Shown one piece after another: positions 19,874-64,000 of a DNA stretch of 64,000 nucleotides. The DNA is from Gammaproteobacteria bacterium (GTDB lineage Bacteria; Pseudomonadota; Gammaproteobacteria; JAADHS01): the NCBI GenBank assembly GCA_013151745.1, contig JAADHS010000202.1, positions 818-64,817 of the forward strand. The letters are read 5' to 3'. How positions within the stretch are numbered: the stretch's first letter is position 1; the number at the start of each line of letters is the position of its first letter. The position numbers and the translations under genes were made by a program. The notes beneath the pieces were generated by a model, which was given only the letters and a program-made list of their open reading frames with translations, searched no databases and was not told where the DNA came from.

Positions 19874-21349
19874 GTGAAATATCGAGATCTTCGAGATTTT
19901 GTCTCTGGCTTGGAAACACGAGGGGAATTAAAACGAATTAACAAAGAAATAGATCCCAACCTGGAAATGACCGAAATTTGCGACCGGGTATTGCGCCGTG
20001 GCGGCCCTGCTTTGTTGTTCCAAAATGTGAAAGGAAGCCCGTTTCCTGTATTAGCTAATTTATTTGGTACACCCGCTCGAGTTGCGTTGGGGATGGGTCA
20101 GGAATCGGTATCGGCATTAAGAGAGGTAGGGCGATTACTGGCTTTTCTCAAAGAGCCCGAGCCCCCTCGTGGAATGAAAGATGCTTGGGAAAAACTTCCC
20201 ATATTTAAGCAAGTATTAAATATGGCACCCAAAACAGTTCATTCTGCCCCCTGTCATGAGCATATTCTTCAGGGCGAGCAAGTTGATCTGTCACAGCTAC
20301 CTATTCAAACCTGCTGGCCGGGCGATGCAGGGCCGCTTATAACTTGGGGGCTGGTTGTTACCAAGGGTCCACTTAAAGAGCGCCAGAATATTGGAATTTA
20401 TCGCCAACAAGTGATTGCTCGTAACAAGGTTATTATGCGATGGTTATCTCATCGTGGCGGCGCTTTGGATTACCTGGAGTGGCAACAAGCGCATCCGGAC
20501 GAACCCTTTCCAATCTCTGTGACTTTAGGCGCTGATCCGGCCACTATTCTAGCCGCCGTGACGCCCGTACCGGATACTTTATCTGAGTATGCTTTTGCTG
20601 GCTTGTTAAGAGGATCCAAAACAGAACTGGTAAAATGTCGTTCAAACGACTTGTTGGTACCCGCGAGCGCAGAATTTGTTTTGGAAGGTTATTTACAACC
20701 GGGAGAGGAAGCGTTAGAAGGACCTTTCGGTGATCATACAGGCTATTACAATGAAGTTGAAAAATTTCCTGTTTTTACCATTACCACCATAACGCATCGC
20801 AGCGATCCTATTTATCATAGTACTTACACCGGTAGACCACCCGATGAACCCGCGATATTGGGTGTGGCCTTAAATGAAGTGTTTGTCCCTATTTTACAAA
20901 AACAGTATCCTGAAATTATCGATTTTTATTTACCACCAGAAGGTTGTTCTTATCGCCTTGCGATTGTCAGTATTAAAAAACAGTACCCGGGTCACGCTAA
21001 AAGAGTCATGATGGGGGTCTGGTCTTTTTTGCGCCAATTTATGTATACCAAATTTGTGATCGTGACCGATGATGATATCAACGTCCGCGACTGGAAGGAT
21101 GTCATCTGGGCGATGACAACCAGAATGGATCCCGTTCGTGATACGACAACAATTGAAAACACCCCAATAGATTATTTAGATTTTGCTTCGCCTGTTTCTA
21201 ACCTGGGCTCAAAGATGGGCTGGGATGCGACAAACAAATGGCCGGGTGAAACCTCACGAGAGTGGGGTCGGCCTATCGCTATGGATCAAAGTGTTAAAGA
21301 AAGAGTTGATGAAATATGGCCTGAACTGGGGCTGGATGATGAGCCCTAG
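19874..21349 (+). CDS. ubiD: UbiD-family decarboxylase (4-hydroxy-3-polyprenylbenzoate decarboxylase)
   Basis: GTG start with an AGAGGG Shine-Dalgarno. The sequence [65 protein letters not shown] is conserved along the UbiD family. The stop TAG lies inside the terminal inverted repeat of the adjacent MITE. Confidence 0.9.
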
Positions 21350-21495
21350 GAGCCTGTCGGACTTGGGGTGAATCTGCTGTGCGGAAAAGCCATTTTTTCA
21401 GATTTTTATGCTCTTTTTACGGGTGCAAAATGGCTTTCACCCGCAGAGGGGGTACCGAGCCTCGCGACGATCACCTAAATCCGACAGGCTCCTAG
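21346..21495. mobile_element. MITE copy 1 (150 bp) of a CTAG-terminated family; perfect 15-bp terminal inverted repeats
   Basis: ctaggagcctgtcgg ... ccgacaggctcctag, with an internal inverted repeat gaaaagccatttt/aaaatggctttc and no ORF. The flanks cTA|...|TAg fit a TA duplication inside a CTAG target. Confidence 0.7.
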
Positions 21496-21695
21496 TACAC
21501 CGTCACGGCCATTTTGACGGTGTACTAGTTCAAATCCTATGCCACGAAAATAATACTTTAGCTGAAAAGCAGTTAAACCTAGATTAAAGTGCACCTTAAA
21601 CAGGACGATAACTCTGGTAAGCATTATTTTTTCATTATTGATCGCCTTTTCTTTCGAAAGGACGATCAGCTTTTAGCGGATTACCGAGGTTTTGC

Positions 21696-23081
21696 ATGAA
21701 TGTCGTAGCTACAGTGATTCGTTATCTTGATCAGCAACAGGTTGAATATAAAGTACATAAGCTTGAAACCTTTGAATCGAGTTATGAAGCGGCGCAGCAA
21801 ATGGACATATCGCCTGAAGTTGTGTTTAGAGCCATCCCCCTAGTCGATCAATTTGGCCTCATGTTAGCGATTACAGCTTCACACATGAGTTTAAATGCAC
21901 AGCGTTTATCTCAACTCCTGGGACGAGACGTTGCTCTGGCCACTAAAAAACAACTGACCGCTATCCTTTCTGATGGTGATCTGGCGTTTGTACCCCCACT
22001 AGGCGAGGCGTTTGGCTTGCGTACCATCATGAATGATAAGCTGATTAGTGCCGATATAATTTATTTGCTCGGTGGTGATAAAAGCTTATTAATCAGCCTT
22101 GCTTATCGTGATTTCCTACAGTTTCAACGCCATGCCTCACTGGTATCGGGGTTCCCGGAACCCTTACCTCAAGAAGATGTAAATATTGAAGAAACGCCAA
22201 TAACAAAGACTGCGCAGGTCAGTGATTTACGAGACTTGGTCAAAGACTTGAATCAGCTTCCTCCTATGCCAGAATTAGCACAAAAAATTTTTCAACTATC
22301 TTCCGACGAAAGTGCTGGTATATCAGAATTAGCAACGATCGTAGAAATTGATCCTAGCTTGTCTGCACAAATATTACGCTATGCTCGTTCTCCTCTTTTC
22401 AATTATCAAGGTACAATTGATAGTATACACACCGCCATTTCTCGGGTGCTGGGCTTCGGTATGGTCATGAATCTTTCGCTCGGTCTAGCGACAGCGAAAT
22501 CTTTTAAGGTTCAACAGTTGGGGCCGCTTGGTTTAGGTAATCATTGGCGACATGCGATATATAGTGCTGCTCTGGCTCAGAACTTGGCCAGCGAAGCAAA
22601 AGAAAGCCATCAATTTAATCACGGCTTAGTTTATTTGTCAGGTTTATTACATAATTTTGGTCATTTACTAATGGGTTACTTATTTAAACATGAATTCACT
22701 TTGCTAAATGAATTGGTATTAGCTAATCCAGCAACACCTGTTAGCGAGCTAGAGATGCAAGTCTTTAATATAACGCACACAGAAGTCGGTGCACTGCTGA
22801 TGGAAAAATGGCGCTTACCGGAAGAAATAATAGTCGCAACGCGACAGCACCATGCCCCTGATTATGATGGTGAGCATGCTGCCTACGCACAAATAATAAC
22901 GCTTGCTGATCATATATTGAAAGGCCACAACATGGGTGATATGCACTGTTCAGATATACCGGAAGCATTATTAACTCAATTGGGCTTAACAGAAATACAA
23001 ACTTTGATGGCAATGAATCGCTTGCTTGAGGATTGTGAAGGCTTTAATGAAATGGCAAAGCAAATGGCGAAAGCGGCATAA
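21696..23081 (+). CDS. Fusion protein: N-terminal YbaK/ProX-like aminoacyl-tRNA deacylase-like domain plus C-terminal HDOD domain
   Basis: Residues 1-150 (...AIPLVDQFGLMLAITASHMSLNAQRLSQLLG...ISADIIYLLGGDK...) resemble YbaK/ProX editing domains. Residues ~180-420 carry HDOD hallmarks (LPPMPELAQKIFQL...IVEIDPSLSAQILRYARSPLFN...HNFGHLLMGYL...). GAGG Shine-Dalgarno. Confidence 0.6.
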   Translation: MNVVATVIRYLDQQQVEYKVHKLETFESSYEAAQQMDISPEVVFRAIPLVDQFGLMLAITASHMSLNAQRLSQLLGRDVALATKKQLTAILSDGDLAFVPPLGEAFGLRTIMNDKLISADIIYLLGGDKSLLISLAYRDFLQFQRHASLVSGFPEPLPQEDVNIEETPITKTAQVSDLRDLVKDLNQLPPMPELAQKIFQLSSDESAGISELATIVEIDPSLSAQILRYARSPLFNYQGTIDSIHTAISRVLGFGMVMNLSLGLATAKSFKVQQLGPLGLGNHWRHAIYSAALAQNLASEAKESHQFNHGLVYLSGLLHNFGHLLMGYLFKHEFTLLNELVLANPATPVSELEMQVFNITHTEVGALLMEKWRLPEEIIVATRQHHAPDYDGEHAAYAQIITLADHILKGHNMGDMHCSDIPEALLTQLGLTEIQTLMAMNRLLEDCEGFNEMAKQMAKAA

Positions 23082-23083
23082 CC

Positions 23084-23227
23084 CTAGGAGCTTGTCCGAA
23101 AATGAAAAGTCTATTTGAGCCCATTTTCTTGATCATTTTCGTTAAATATGCTTAATGTTTGCCTAAAATGATCAAAAAAAATGGCTTTTTCTCGTGACGA
23201 TTTTCATTCTCGGGTAGGCTCCCCTAG
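23084..23227. mobile_element. MITE copy 2 (144 bp) of the CTAG family
   Basis: ctaggagcttgtccgaaaatgaaaag ... cttttcattctcgggtaggctcccctag. The inverted repeat shares ctaggagNctgYccgaRaat with copy 3. Flanks are cTA/TAg. The right end overlaps the last 8 codons and stop of comM. Confidence 0.7.
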
Positions 23228-24757
23228 CCCCACGCCACGATCCAGTTGGCGATAACTTATTGCTTCTGTAAGATGTATTCTTAGTATTTTTTCTTGGTTA
23301 TCCAAATCGGCCAGGGTTCTGGCTACCTTTAATATACGCTGAAATGCGCGTCCTGAAAGCTGCAATTTTTCAATTGCAGTTTCCAACAAGTGGTGATCTT
23401 CTTGCTGTAGTTGGCAATGAGCAATAAGATCTTGAGTTGTGAGCCGGCTATTAAGATAACGAGTGCGTTCGATTTGCTTTGCTCTTGCAGCGATGACCCG
23501 TTGCCGAATACTGGCGCTACTTTCTTCCTTTTTGATTTTACACGGATCAGTGATTGACAGTAAAGAAGCCGTATTTCTCTGTACCTCAATATGCAAATCA
23601 ATACGGTCAAGCAGGGGGCCGGAGACGCGGTTACGATATTTTTTAATTTGCTCTGCCGTACAATGACAGCGTTCGCTGTGATCATTCAAATAACCACAAG
23701 GACAAGGATTCATTGCTGCAACGAGTTGAAATTGAGCCGGAAACTCAGCTTGACCTTGCGCCCGGGAAATCACAATACGACCGGCTTCAAGGGGCTCACG
23801 TAGTACATTGAGAACATGTCGATTAAATTCTGTAAACTCATCCAGAAATAACACCCCATTGTGTGCAAGAGAAACTTCACCCGGTTGCGGAATAGAGCCA
23901 CCCCCCACAAGCGCGGCCGCTGAACTGGTGTGATGCGGTGCACGAAAAGGGGGATTACGCCACTGACTCGGATGAAACCCTAAAGAAGCAACGGAATGAA
24001 TCACGGCGGTTTCAAGTGCTTCATCCACAGTAAGCTGAGGCTGAATAGAGGGTAGACGACTGGCTAACATCGTTTTTCCTGTTCCTGGAGGACCAATCAT
24101 AATCAGGTTATGTCCGCCGGCTGCCGCAATTTCCAGTGCTCTTCTGGCATGCGATTGGCCAATCACCTCAGACATATCAGGTTGCTGTGTTGTTGTACTT
24201 GTCGCCGATATTTTGGGTTCACTATGCGGAAGTAGCGACAGGCGTTGCTGATGGTGCAGATGCGCGCATAATTCAAGTAAGTGACCACACGCGATCGTTT
24301 TTACATTAGGCACCAATGTCGCTTCTGCTGCATTTTCTTGCTGTAGGACGATGATTCGGCCACTGATTTTTGCTTGTGCAGCGATTGCCAATGCACCGGT
24401 AACGGGGCGAAGCACACCATTGAGCGCAAGTTCACTAATAAATTCATATTGATTTAGTTCTTTATTCGGAATTTGCCCTGATGCGGCCAATAACCCAATG
24501 GCAATAGCCAGGTCGAAACGGCTTCCTTCTTTACGTATATCAGCAGGCGCAAGATTGACTGTGATACGTTGTCTTGGAAATTTAAAGTGGCTATTTAACA
24601 AGGCAGCCCGAACACGGTCTTTGCTTTCTTTTACCGCAGTTTCTGGCAACCCAACTATGGAAAAAGAAGGCAAACCATTAGCCAGGTGAACCTCAACCGT
24701 AACTAATGGCGCAGAGGCACCAACAAGGGCGCGACAATAAGCAATGGCAAAATTCAT
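23204..24757 (-). CDS. comM: YifB/ComM-family Mg-chelatase-like AAA+ ATPase
   Basis: MNFAIAYCRALVGASAPLVTVEVHLANGLPSFSIVGLPETAVKESKDRVRAAL matches E. coli YifB, with Walker A GPPGTGKT. The C-terminal 8 codons are encoded inside the MITE inverted repeat. Confidence 0.85.
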   Translation of the reverse strand: MNFAIAYCRALVGASAPLVTVEVHLANGLPSFSIVGLPETAVKESKDRVRAALLNSHFKFPRQRITVNLAPADIRKEGSRFDLAIAIGLLAASGQIPNKELNQYEFISELALNGVLRPVTGALAIAAQAKISGRIIVLQQENAAEATLVPNVKTIACGHLLELCAHLHHQQRLSLLPHSEPKISATSTTTQQPDMSEVIGQSHARRALEIAAAGGHNLIMIGPPGTGKTMLASRLPSIQPQLTVDEALETAVIHSVASLGFHPSQWRNPPFRAPHHTSSAAALVGGGSIPQPGEVSLAHNGVLFLDEFTEFNRHVLNVLREPLEAGRIVISRAQGQAEFPAQFQLVAAMNPCPCGYLNDHSERCHCTAEQIKKYRNRVSGPLLDRIDLHIEVQRNTASLLSITDPCKIKKEESSASIRQRVIAARAKQIERTRYLNSRLTTQDLIAHCQLQQEDHHLLETAIEKLQLSGRAFQRILKVARTLADLDNQEKILRIHLTEAISYRQLDRGVGLGEPTRE

Positions 24758-41762: not shown

Positions 41763-42083
41763 CTAGGAGGCTGTCCGAGAATAGAGAGCCGACTGCGGAA
41801 AATCCATTTAGGCCATATTTTCCGATCAATTTCGTTAAAGATGCTCATATAGTAAGTACCCCGCCATAATTTTTTAATATTCATTGGTCTTTGTTTACGT
41901 GACTCTGCGTTACAGCTCCTGTCACAATAGCTCACTTCGCTGTGCCTTGACTCACGCGAAAAGTCCTGCATAAATTGAGTTAAAATAATTATGGCGGGGT
42001 ACTTATTCGCCTCGTTTGGTCGAAAAATCTGACCCAAAACGACTTCCCCTCGCTACGATTTCTATTCTCGGGCAGTCTCCTAG
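41763..42083. mobile_element. MITE copy 3 (321 bp) of the CTAG family, carrying a nested second inverted-repeat element (41851-42008)
   Basis: Outer inverted repeat: ctaggaggctgtccgagaatagaga ... tctattctcgggcagtctcctag, with flanks cTA/TAg. Inner element: (a)gtaagtaccccgccataatt ... aattatggcggggtacttatt, a 20/21-bp inverted repeat 157 bp apart. Confidence 0.7.
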
Positions 42084-58331: not shown

Positions 58332-58494
58332 TGTCGTATTATTGAAGTTGGTGTTTCTGCAGTGAAAAGAAGGCGAATGATGGATTATTTAACGGAAAAA
58401 CAACGTTTCCGTACCCTTAAATTGTACTGCATGACCTTTGTCATCCCGCTTGGAAAATAAGCGGTGGTTTTCAGCTATATGGGTATGCTTAGGT

Positions 58495-58712
58495 ATGGGC
58501 ACGTAATAACTTTCCGTTTTGAAATTTCATCTTCAGCTCGTCTTTGTCTGTTCTTCAATTTCAAAACCTCGAAATAAGAGCGATCATTTCTGCACTTTGC
58601 TCAAAGCTTCCACGTCCTGCTCACGCATCTTACCTACATCCCTGTAGGCAATCAGAACGAACAAATACATGTTAAATCTGAACCCTAAAACGGGAAGTTA
58701 TTACGTGCCCAT
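58495..58712. mobile_element. Second MITE-like element (218 bp), 26-bp terminal inverted repeats with one mismatch
   Basis: atgggcacgtaataactttccgtttt ... aaaacgggaagttattacgtgcccat. It has no ORF and fills the intergenic space between the hydrolase gene start and the DUF533 gene stop. Confidence 0.6.
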
Positions 58713-58715
58713 TCC

Positions 58716-59405
58716 TTAATTATACAATTGTAGAGCACCCAGCTTTTCATGAATTTGGTTGCTGACTTGGGGTGAAATATTCAAGCCTTTGGCTAATTGA
58801 TCCAAATATTGCGCTTCTTCTTTAGAATCCAGATTAATCACAAGTAATGACATCAAATAAGCTTGTTCTTCCATGCCTTTAGGAATGCTCTTGATCAATC
58901 CTTGTGTATCCAGCGGTGCTTGTAGTTCCTGACGAACGAAATTGGCTTCCTCTTCAGAAATATCGTCAAGGTGCTCCGTAATTTTACGTTTTTCTTCATC
59001 GTCAAGGTGACCATCCGCTTTTGCTGCATGAATCATGGCGCGAAGTATAATCTCTGCCTTTTTTTCATCGTCCTCAGAAGCTTGAGCTTCTTTACCTTGT
59101 AGCGCATCGTTAAACAAGTTGCCAAAGTCGTTTTTGGAGCGACTTTCATTGTTTGCATTATTGTTATTTTGTGTATCGCCACTAAATGAATTCAGTATGC
59201 TACCTAGGCCACCTCCCCCTCCTTTTCCAGATAAGCCTTTTAATAAATTGCCTATGCCGCCACTGTTGGAATTATTGCCGCCCATCAAGCCGCTGATCAA
59301 TCCACCCAGGCCGCTTCCACCACGGCGTCTGCCTGTTATTTTTTCTACACCTTTAGCAACAATAATACCCATTGCAACTTTTCCTAATGTCCTCACCAAG
59401 CTCAT
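58716..59405 (-). CDS. DUF533/TerB-like domain protein (YebE family), Gly-rich N-terminal half
   Basis: LRAMIHAAKADGHLDDEEKRKITEHL...ELQAPLD closely resembles the conserved core of E. coli YebE. The N-terminus is G/S/N low-complexity. Confidence 0.55.
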   Translation of the reverse strand: MSLVRTLGKVAMGIIVAKGVEKITGRRRGGSGLGGLISGLMGGNNSNSGGIGNLLKGLSGKGGGGGLGSILNSFSGDTQNNNNANNESRSKNDFGNLFNDALQGKEAQASEDDEKKAEIILRAMIHAAKADGHLDDEEKRKITEHLDDISEEEANFVRQELQAPLDTQGLIKSIPKGMEEQAYLMSLLVINLDSKEEAQYLDQLAKGLNISPQVSNQIHEKLGALQLYN

Positions 59406-63686: not shown

Positions 63687-64000
63687 CATCGACTATAAAT
63701 TCCTAAGTTACAGGCTATTTATTGAAATATTTTGATCATACTCTTTGGCTTTTCAGGCTTATTTTATAGTTAAAAAAGAGGCTTGATTGTAGATATCGAC
63801 TATTAGCGTTATTATGACTTAGGGATGGTACACAATAACTTGTACATATGGCACCCGGATTTAGTTTGCGTTGGCTCGTCCTGACTGAGAAAAAGTGCAG
63901 GAATAGTCGTTCTTATTTCGAGCTTTTGTGAAGAAAGAACGTGACAACGCGGGCTGCAAGATGTATAAATTATTGTGTGCCATCCCTTAAACTTACCGCC

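Follow-up and report, generated by a model that had tools for sequence, protein, structure and literature searches.

A SadB-family protein with a YbaK-like and an HDOD domain and with histidines aligned to HDOD metal ligands

The 64,000-nt stretch of gammaproteobacterial DNA analysed here (the window) encodes what is likely to be a cytoplasmic, stand-alone member of the SadB/Maqu_0641 family, with a degenerate YbaK/ProX-like N-terminal domain, a flexible linker and an 'HN'-type HDOD domain of about 290-300 aa, which would act as a non-enzymatic adaptor; the grade applies to the identity of the protein and its mode of action taken together. The sole notable feature is that the histidines aligned with the metal ligands of the HDOD protein 3HC1 are kept here and lost in Pseudomonas SadB. 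Discovery value is otherwise small, since the domain fusion is already named, linked to a phenotype and represented by two crystal structures. The features referred to below are the following.

19874-21349, + strand: ubiD, upstream neighbour
21346-21495, no strand: MITE-like copy 1, 150 bp, with arms of 22 nt that are 91% complementary
21496-21528, no strand: inserted perfect hairpin of 33 bp, with flanking CTAG
21640-21667, + strand: hairpin from an imperfect inverted repeat, 28 nt before the ATG
21696-23081, + strand: SadB-family gene, a 461-aa ORF (YbaK/ProX-like N-terminal domain, linker, HDOD C-terminal domain)
21696-22145, + strand: segment encoding the YbaK-like N-terminal domain (R45; AFVPP, aa 97-101; PPLG)
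22227-23078, + strand: segment encoding the HDOD domain (H286, H319-N320, H361, H385-H386, D405)
23084-23227, no strand: MITE-like copy 2, 144 bp, at CTAG between the convergent SadB-like gene and comM
23204-24757, - strand: comM/yifB (Mg-chelatase-like AAA+), convergent neighbour

Architecture, family and gene context

The ORF lies exactly where the sequence-only reading had placed it, with a GAGG 6 nt 5' of the ATG (sequence inspection), and its product divides into an N-terminal domain (aa ~1-150), a disordered linker (aa 159-176) and a C-terminal domain (aa ~178-461). Assignment of the last of these to HDOD held up well: in the Pfam search PF08668 covers aa 188-388 with its full profile (1-196) at E=7.4e-47, and in Foldseek the HDOD part of the AlphaFold2 model of the protein (pLDDT 86.7, pTM 0.65) matches 3HC1 with a TMt of 0.72. 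The orientation of the two domains in the model is uncertain, because of that pTM and because the whole chain superposes on 9QZK with an rmsd of 18 A.

The best match in a phmmer search of the PDB is 9QZK (E=6.4e-63, aa 44-457 against 35-455), identified as SadB of P. aeruginosa (PMC12075610), and 3MEM, which is Maqu_0641, is matched at E=9e-57. The same two structures head the Foldseek list (E=8e-29 and E=3e-26, respectively), the family profile scores 9QZK at 1.4e-106, and BLASTP aligns 396 aa with SadB at 32% identity (E=2e-69). The joining of a YbaK-like to an HDOD domain, which had been called unusual from the sequence, proved both widespread and already named: it is the SadB architecture, known since 2004 as far as the reference list of PMC12075610 goes, and it defines a large known family, with two crystal structures, and is not new. 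Of 8000 candidates that were scored, 693 are homologues, there are 417 clusters (50% identity) with E<=1e-30, and some members already carry the JGI name "HDOD protein/YbaK". The same fusion is present in relatives, nearly all of the 120 homologues listed being ~460 aa long with PF04073 plus PF08668. A literature search for fusions of HDOD with editing domains returned nothing beyond the SadB papers. The contig scan of genomes gave one relative (L001, a 93%-identical orthologue); the taxonomic breadth comes from protein databases, in which most of the family comes from uncultured Gammaproteobacteria, among them hydrothermal-vent samples and MAGs that bear the labels Chromatiaceae and Halothiobacillaceae.

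Sequence comparison places the window protein outside the SadB-proper clade (members at least 42% identical to SadB) and in the larger sister group. SadB itself (PA5346, 9QZK) resembles it in the two-domain architecture, in chain length (457 aa vs. 461), in being encoded by a stand-alone gene and in the HN variant of the HD dyad (LLHNFG), but has Q rather than R at the position of the YbaK lysine, and its ligand columns read Q/HN/R/QQ/N where those of the window protein read H/HN/H/HH/D. Maqu_0641 of Marinobacter aquaeolei has the same architecture and the same Arg at the lysine position, but its pocket is degenerate as in SadB (Q/HN/R/QK/R), and identity in the family alignment is 31%. The 3MEM entry comes from structural genomics and reads 'putative signal transduction protein'.

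Gene context, compared through relatives of the window protein, gave no conserved operon partner: ubiD does not stay next to the gene in relatives that are more distant, and the adjacency of comM is kept in L001 and in two 74%-identical relatives (L002 and L004). The SadB-like gene is monocistronic and stands in a housekeeping chromosomal context.

The YbaK-like N-terminal domain

The sequence-only reading of the N-terminal domain as YbaK/ProX-like was correct as regards the fold. The N-terminal domain of the AlphaFold2 model superposes on YbaK/ProX structures, including 1dbu, 2cx5, 1wdv and 3op6, with TMt values of 0.81-0.85 and rmsds of 2.2-3.1 A, and the NCBIfam profile TIGR00011 (YbaK_EbsC) aligns end to end (aa 7-143 on profile positions 3-143 of 152, E=7e-7). 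Pfam tRNA_edit (PF04073) gave no match to the window protein at E<=1; among 54 family members this protein is the sole miss, the other 53 being matched (best E 5.9e-23). With 29 bits for TIGR00011, far under the cut-off of 153, and 19.7 for PRK10670, where the threshold is 243, the protein lies below the Pfam and NCBIfam thresholds of the deacylase family. Among PDB chains of this fold, sequence matches were obtained to 3op6 (1.3e-7), 1dbu (3.6e-5) and 2dxa (5.7e-4); the nearest by sequence, the stand-alone lpg1207 (3OP6), reaches 1.5e-23 with the profile and has the PPLG motif in common with the window protein. The deacylases 1DBU, 2DXA and 2CX5, like lpg1207, share with it the N-terminal 150-aa fold and the PxG and GG motifs; the deacylases differ in their catalytic lysine, in the glycine of GXXXP and in the absence of a fused HDOD domain.

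A fold so well kept would suit a pocket that binds an aminoacyl-adenylate-like ligand, the 3' end of an aminoacyl-tRNA or an (oligo)nucleotide and signals to the HDOD domain, or else a trans-editing deacylase tethered to HDOD, and several details agree with such a role: the GG strand motif (G126-G127, of which G127 is invariant) is retained, as is the proline of GXXXP, 39% of close homologues have Lys at the column of the catalytic lysine, lpg1207 was deposited as an 'oligo-nucleotide binding protein', and the SadB of P. fluorescens has been reported to bind c-di-GMP (PMC6543031). What makes a sensor or deacylase of this kind rather unlikely, apart from the profile scores, is the state of the active site. 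The conserved lysine, which the sequence-only reading named as a pocket residue, is not retained, R45 being aligned with K46 of H. influenzae YbaK (1dbu), the critical lysine of that enzyme (PMC3532385); across the family the column varies among K, Q, R, Y and H, unlike a catalytic residue. In the GXXXP substrate-binding loop of YbaK/ProX deacylases (PMC9425024), AFVPP of the window protein aligns with GGISP, so that the proline is kept and the glycine is gone. Moreover, Biacore measurements gave no sign that P. aeruginosa SadB binds c-di-GMP, and 13 point mutations, most of them in its HDOD pocket, were without effect (PMC12075610); since the two papers disagree on c-di-GMP, the ligand status of the family prototype is disputed. 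With Arg at the K46 position and the GXXXP glycine missing, aminoacyl-tRNA deacylase activity appears unlikely, and the domain would probably serve as a binding or scaffold surface instead.

The histidine cluster of the HDOD domain and the proposed function

The stand-alone HDOD protein 3HC1 (GSU..., NP_953345.1) contains bound di-iron, the ligands of which are five histidines and one aspartate according to the paper cited for it. Its H, HD, H, HH and D motifs pair residue for residue with H286, H319(N320), H361, H385/H386 and D405 of the window protein, an assignment of ligands that comes from the motif alignment and not from the 3HC1 coordinates. The two share the HDOD fold; 3HC1 differs in having no YbaK-like domain, in having HD where the window protein has HN, and in sequence generally (~22% identity). 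None of the five histidines varies among the 118 close homologues, 113 of which also have D405, and of 125 representative clusters 72 keep all five. SadB has Q, H, R, Q and Q at the columns of H286, H319, H361, H385 and H386, so that one histidine of the five is kept; the structure paper likewise describes one His only facing the HDOD pocket of Pseudomonas SadB (PMC12075610), and the SadB-proper clade as a whole reads Q-HN-R-Q-x. The pocket of SadB is also occluded by residues 154-159. In these alignments the majority branch of the family, the window protein included, has kept the five histidines and the distal aspartate, and the Pseudomonas SadB branch has lost them.

In HD-domain enzymes the aspartate of the HD dyad bridges both metals. 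It is the one position of the HD / HD-GYP phosphohydrolase ligand set that is missing from the window protein, being replaced by asparagine (N320) here and in 96% of close homologues, while 22 of the 125 representative clusters retain HD rather than HN. The retained histidine cluster, together with a Pfam HD score above threshold (27.1 bits, gathering score 22), could point to a catalytic or metal-sensing role absent from SadB. Taken furthest, this would make the HDOD domain an active or metal-/redox-sensing binuclear HD-type metalloprotein, for example a (cyclic-di)nucleotide phosphohydrolase, with SadB as the degenerate offshoot of an enzymatic family; the invariance of the five histidines and the alignment of these and the distal aspartate with the 3HC1 motifs would fit, as would the clusters that have HD. 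We regard such a metalloprotein as quite doubtful in view of the substituted dyad, of the absence of a GYP motif after the HH pair (the residues there are HHAPDYDGEHAAY) and of the published account of the HDOD domain as catalytically inactive (PMC6543031).

Some limited credence may be given to a broader proposal drawn from the same columns, namely that most YbaK-like/HDOD proteins are metal-binding (possibly di-iron) sensors or enzymes in which H...HN...H...HH...D, and often the YbaK lysine, are functional, Pseudomonas SadB being a degenerate side branch. If this were true, the published 'no ligand' conclusion would not describe the YbaK-like/HDOD family, and a metal, redox or nucleotide signal could be tied to proteolytic regulator control.

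The reading that we prefer, by analogy with SadB, is that the window protein is most likely a regulatory adaptor that turns over no substrate. SadB is required for irreversible attachment and controls the motile-to-sessile switch; it binds the transcription factor AmrZ (C-terminus) and delivers it to Lon, and is thus an adaptor for AmrZ degradation, mainly by Lon, for which both of its domains are required (PMC12075610). Because the window protein is only ~32% identical to SadB and lies outside the SadB-proper clade, ascribing the adaptor function and the AmrZ target to it is an extrapolation. Since the aligned ligand positions are intact, a bound metal, or a small ligand at that metal, may gate the activity of the window protein, unlike that of P. 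aeruginosa SadB. The structure paper on P. aeruginosa SadB took the absence of these histidines as an argument against ligand binding (PMC12075610). They are present in the window protein and in the majority of its relatives, so that what has been concluded about function from Pseudomonas SadB may not hold for most of the family; annotation and SadB research alike should allow for this.

Mobile elements and the upstream hairpin

Copies 1 and 2 do flank the gene, as the sequence-only reading had it, but the bracketing is incidental. The terminal inverted repeat (TIR) of the two copies, CTAGGAGCYTGTCSGA, is matched 4 times in the window, where 0.05 matches would be expected (TIR pattern search); three MITE-like copies lie within the 64 kb, and at least six metagenome contigs (six aligned) carry inverted TIR pairs at a spacing of 130-190 bp. 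The elements were found by the TIR pattern search together with short-seed repeats; searching the whole window for repeats at default settings (seed 12, minimum 30 nt) missed them. The left CTAG of copy 1 contains the stop codon of ubiD. The empty site in L001 has a single CTAG and copy 2 is enclosed by two, a target-site duplication. The flanking elements are thus short and non-coding, have TIRs, duplicate their target site, are multicopy and can be compared at filled and empty sites, as befits MITEs. The 33-bp hairpin insertion next to copy 1 is absent at the same site in L001.

Because the 93%-identical L001 has an empty copy-2 site and the 74%-identical L002 and L004 lack both copies, the insertions beside the gene are recent and incidental. 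A composite transposon of the form MITE-gene-MITE was considered and is ruled out by the empty site in L001. The wider proposal of a mobile composite made up of the gene and both copies, with the palindrome as an operator acquired together with it, is extremely improbable: elements of the same family do stand on both sides of the gene, but their cores are weakly alike and they have little in common beyond their termini, the copy-2 site of L001 is cleanly empty, and the gene is convergent to comM in the MITE-free L002 and L004 just as in L001.

The palindrome itself was correctly located but is imperfect, with arms GATCGCCTTT and AAAGGaCGATC, a 1-nt bulge and a 7-nt spacer. Its 71-nt context has a folding energy of -17.5 kcal/mol (z=-1.9), which is equalled by 8 of 200 shuffled sequences. 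It is kept in L001, with a different loop, and is absent from L002 and L004; with no conservation beyond that closest relative, the operator role proposed for it is unsupported. A scan of the intergenic region (21497-21695) for sigma-70 promoters and terminators found none, and Rfam on 21300-23300 gave none but a sub-threshold snoRNA chance match. Neither the flanking MITEs nor the upstream hairpin is part of the SadB-like system. The final codons of comM and its stop come from copy 2, and in the comparison of filled with empty sites a family of elements that targets CTAG is seen to rewrite the 3' end of that gene.

Domain architecture and family membership

The protein encoded by the SadB-like gene (461 aa) almost certainly belongs to the SadB family. 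Its best matches among PDB sequences are 9QZK (E=6.4e-63, aa 44-457), the crystal structure of SadB (PA5346) of Pseudomonas aeruginosa, and 3MEM (E=9e-57), which is Maqu_0641 of Marinobacter aquaeolei and was used for molecular replacement in solving 9QZK (PMC12075610); the same two entries are its best PDB matches by fold and come first with a family profile (1.4e-106 and 3.8e-97, respectively). SadB and the window protein are 32% identical across 396 aa (BLASTP). Pseudomonas SadB itself consists of an N-terminal YbaK-like domain and a C-terminal HDOD domain (PMC6543031, PMC12075610).

The sequence-only reading had recognized a YbaK/ProX-like domain joined to an HDOD domain, and this was correct. 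With Pfam, the HDOD domain is complete (aa 188-388, E=7.4e-47) and an HD match lies slightly over threshold (27.1 vs 22 bits); for the N-terminal domain the tRNA_edit model gives nothing at E<=1. Three other lines show that the N-terminal domain is YbaK-like: an end-to-end alignment to TIGR00011 (YbaK_EbsC, NCBIfam; E=7e-7, with a score far under the cut-off); phmmer matches of aa 1-160 to the PDB sequences of lpg1207 (3op6, 1.3e-7), Haemophilus influenzae YbaK (1dbu, 3.6e-5) and the E. coli protein 2dxa (5.7e-4); and superposition of an AlphaFold2 model (54 input homologues, mean pLDDT 86.7, linker 159-176 disordered) on YbaK/ProX structures, with TM 0.81-0.85 and rmsd 2.2-3.1 A. The C-terminal domain of the model matches the stand-alone di-iron HDOD protein 3HC1 with TM 0.72. 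Among 54 aligned relatives, 53 match Pfam tRNA_edit, the strongest with E=5.9e-23; only the window protein goes undetected, although even its 74%-identical relatives are recognized. Its N-terminal domain is also closer in score to the stand-alone lpg1207 than to the corresponding domains of SadB and 3MEM (~4e-3).

The fusion, which had been thought unusual, is neither rare nor new. A word-indexed search scored 8000 candidates and found 693 homologues; among the 120 listed, nearly all are ~460 aa long with precomputed PF04073 and PF08668 hits, and several carry the JGI name [quoted passage not shown]. In an exhaustive search of 50%-identity representatives, 417 clusters reached E<=1e-30; 124 of the best 150 measure 420-520 aa, and the majority of those 124 align across both domains.

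The YbaK-like pocket and the HDOD histidines

The critical active-site lysine of H. influenzae YbaK is K46 (PMC3532385), to which R45 of the window protein aligns. The column holds K 46, Q 28, R 23 and Y 13 times among 118 close homologues, and R 69, K 13 and Q 12 times among 125 representative clusters, with Y outside the top seven residues listed. Trans-editing domains conserve a GXXXP loop (PMC9425024); in the window protein the corresponding residues are AFVPP, and the glycine is missing. The conserved Lys that was to be checked in the YbaK pocket is not retained; a catalytic role for so variable a residue appears unlikely, and deacylase function improbable. We regard it as doubtful that the domain serves in ligand sensing or editing, though some ligand may bind it.

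The iron ligands of 3HC1 are given as five His and one Asp in the SadB paper, whose case against ligand binding rests partly on there being only one His facing the SadB pocket (PMC12075610). The state of the aligned positions is quite different in the window protein.

Residues aligned with the H / HD / H / HH / D motifs of 3HC1 (C-domain alignment)
Window protein: H286, H319-N320, H361, H385-H386, D405
SadB: Q, HN, R, QQ, N
Maqu_0641: Q, HN, R, QK, R

Their designation as putative metal-ligand positions (H286, H319, H361, H385, H386 and D405) rests on this motif alignment. All five His are kept in 118/118 of the closest full-length homologues (position 320 Asn 113, Asp 5; position 405 Asp 113) and in 72/125 of the representative clusters of 420-520 aa (position 320 Asn 100, Asp 22; position 405 Asn 48, Asp 42); the H319, H361, H385 and H386 columns are each His in at least 90% of the latter. 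Full degeneration of the pattern occurs only in sequences at least 42% identical to SadB. The window protein, which keeps all five His, therefore belongs to the larger, "His-replete" part of the family, outside SadB sensu stricto. To our knowledge, the intact histidine positions of this sub-branch have not previously been discussed.

SadB is a non-enzymatic adaptor: it attaches to AmrZ at the C-terminal region and promotes breakdown of that protein, chiefly through Lon, a function requiring both domains (PMC12075610). In P. aeruginosa, SadB needs no pocket ligand and does not bind c-di-GMP (PMC12075610); c-di-GMP binding is reported for P. fluorescens SadB (PMC6543031). Family membership, folds, aligned ligand-position state and stand-alone context are established for the window protein. 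A similar adaptor role is, by homology, the model we tentatively take as the most likely, with the modification that activity may be gated by metal held at the conserved His/Asp positions. The same positions could instead form an HD-type metal centre that is active or redox-sensing; with Asn at 320 opposite the Asp of the HD motif, we think this unlikely.

Genomic setting

19874..21349, + strand, ubiD, upstream neighbour
21696..23081, + strand, SadB-like ORF (461 aa), the sole ORF of its region, with GAGG 6 nt 5' of the ATG
23204..24757, convergent to the SadB-like gene, comM/yifB-type Mg-chelatase-like AAA+ gene, downstream neighbour

The wider neighbourhood is of housekeeping type (oligopeptidase A, glnK-amtB, ychF, pth).

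Neighbours of the SadB-like gene in the window and in six loci of relatives (identity to the window protein)
Window: ubiD upstream; comM downstream, convergent
L001 (93%, MAG labelled Chromatiaceae): ubiD; comM, convergent
L002 and L003 (74%, one protein on two contigs): ThiF-rhodanese gene; comM, convergent
L004 (75%): cNMP-binding/rhodanese gene; comM, convergent
L005 (45%): ThiF-rhodanese gene; Hpt/REC gene
L006 (40%): weak DUF179 hit; small gene without a Pfam hit

Across these loci there is no conserved operon partner, and the behaviour is that of a chromosomal gene which stands alone and is inherited vertically. The 3' end of the SadB-like gene overlaps that of comM by 38 bp in the 74-75%-identical relatives L002 (7349-7386) and L004 (7346-7383), with no overlap in L001 or the window.

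Flanking elements and the upstream hairpin

21346-21495, MITE copy 1, ends CTAGGAGCYTGTCSGA, inverted-repeat arms 22 nt, 91% complementary
23084-23227, MITE copy 2, ends CTAGGAGCYTGTCSGA, inverted-repeat arms 22 nt, 82% complementary
41763-42083, third copy, CTAGGAGSCTGTCCGA ends, interrupted by a different, nested element
41853-42005, the nested element, 153 bp, perfect 19-bp terminal inverted repeats TAAGTACCCCGCCATAATT

The CTAGGAGCYTGTCSGA end pattern has four matches in the window vs 0.05 expected; the cores of copies 1 and 2 align poorly. The copy 2 site is empty in L001 (cataatCCTAGctcacacc) and filled in the window (cataacCCTAG[element]CCTAGccccacgcc), which shows that copy 2 inserted with CTAG duplication. 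Copy 1 is present in L001 in a shorter form, and both are absent from L002 and L004. The two elements said to bracket the gene are real, but their placement is incidental and the gene is older than the insertions at the locus.

More than 120 metagenome stretches carry the same termini; single matches to a 14-base pattern could be chance, and at least six contigs have the termini as inverted pairs 130-190 bp apart. In the six contigs that were aligned (L007, L018, L024, L034, L050 and L052), elements of 140-190 bp with unrelated cores are bounded by these ~20-bp termini and have CTAG at each end, so that the MITEs are a widespread, TIR-defined family; no parent transposase was identified for it. 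To judge by their names, the contigs come from many different metagenome projects.

The CTAG that the family targets or duplicates contains a stop codon in both orientations. The ubiD stop TAG lies within the left-end CTAG of copy 1 (21346-21349), as it does in L001. The 3' end of comM (23204-23227) lies inside copy 2, which supplies the last seven codons and stop and has rewritten the ComM C-terminus (...YRQLDRGVS* in L001 vs ...YRQLDRGVGLGEPTRE* in the window).

An imperfect hairpin upstream of the SadB-like gene (21640-21667; 10-bp stem, one bulge, 7-nt loop) had been proposed as a palindromic operator, which finds no support here. Its 71-nt context folds at -17.5 kcal/mol (z=-1.9), equalled by 8/200 shuffles. 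In L001 the flanks are near-identical and the hairpin is remodelled, with an 8-bp perfect stem, a GCGA loop and one paired C>T / G>A change, a weak hint, from these two sequences, of selection for the structure. L002 and L004 lack it and have, in the equivalent place, another short GC stem with a T-run after it. Because the loop varies in length and the hairpin is not conserved, an operator of fixed spacing is disfavoured; more probably the hairpin belongs to a transcript end or a 5'-UTR. The region yielded no assignable promoter, terminator or Rfam family.

Two other sets of repeats may be mobile. A 33-bp insertion at 21496-21528 (TACACCGTCACGGCCATTTTGACGGTGTACTAG), with CTAG on either side, forms with the preceding CTAG a perfect 14-bp-stem hairpin; it is missing at the identical L001 site, has no second copy in the window, and could represent either a minimal, palindromic mobile element or a footprint. 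A 30-nt inverted repeat at 58491-58716 (93% complementary, 166 nt apart) and a 49-nt inverted pair at 58550-58598 and 63892-63940 (80% complementary, 5.3 kb apart) may represent another MITE and IS or transposon ends.
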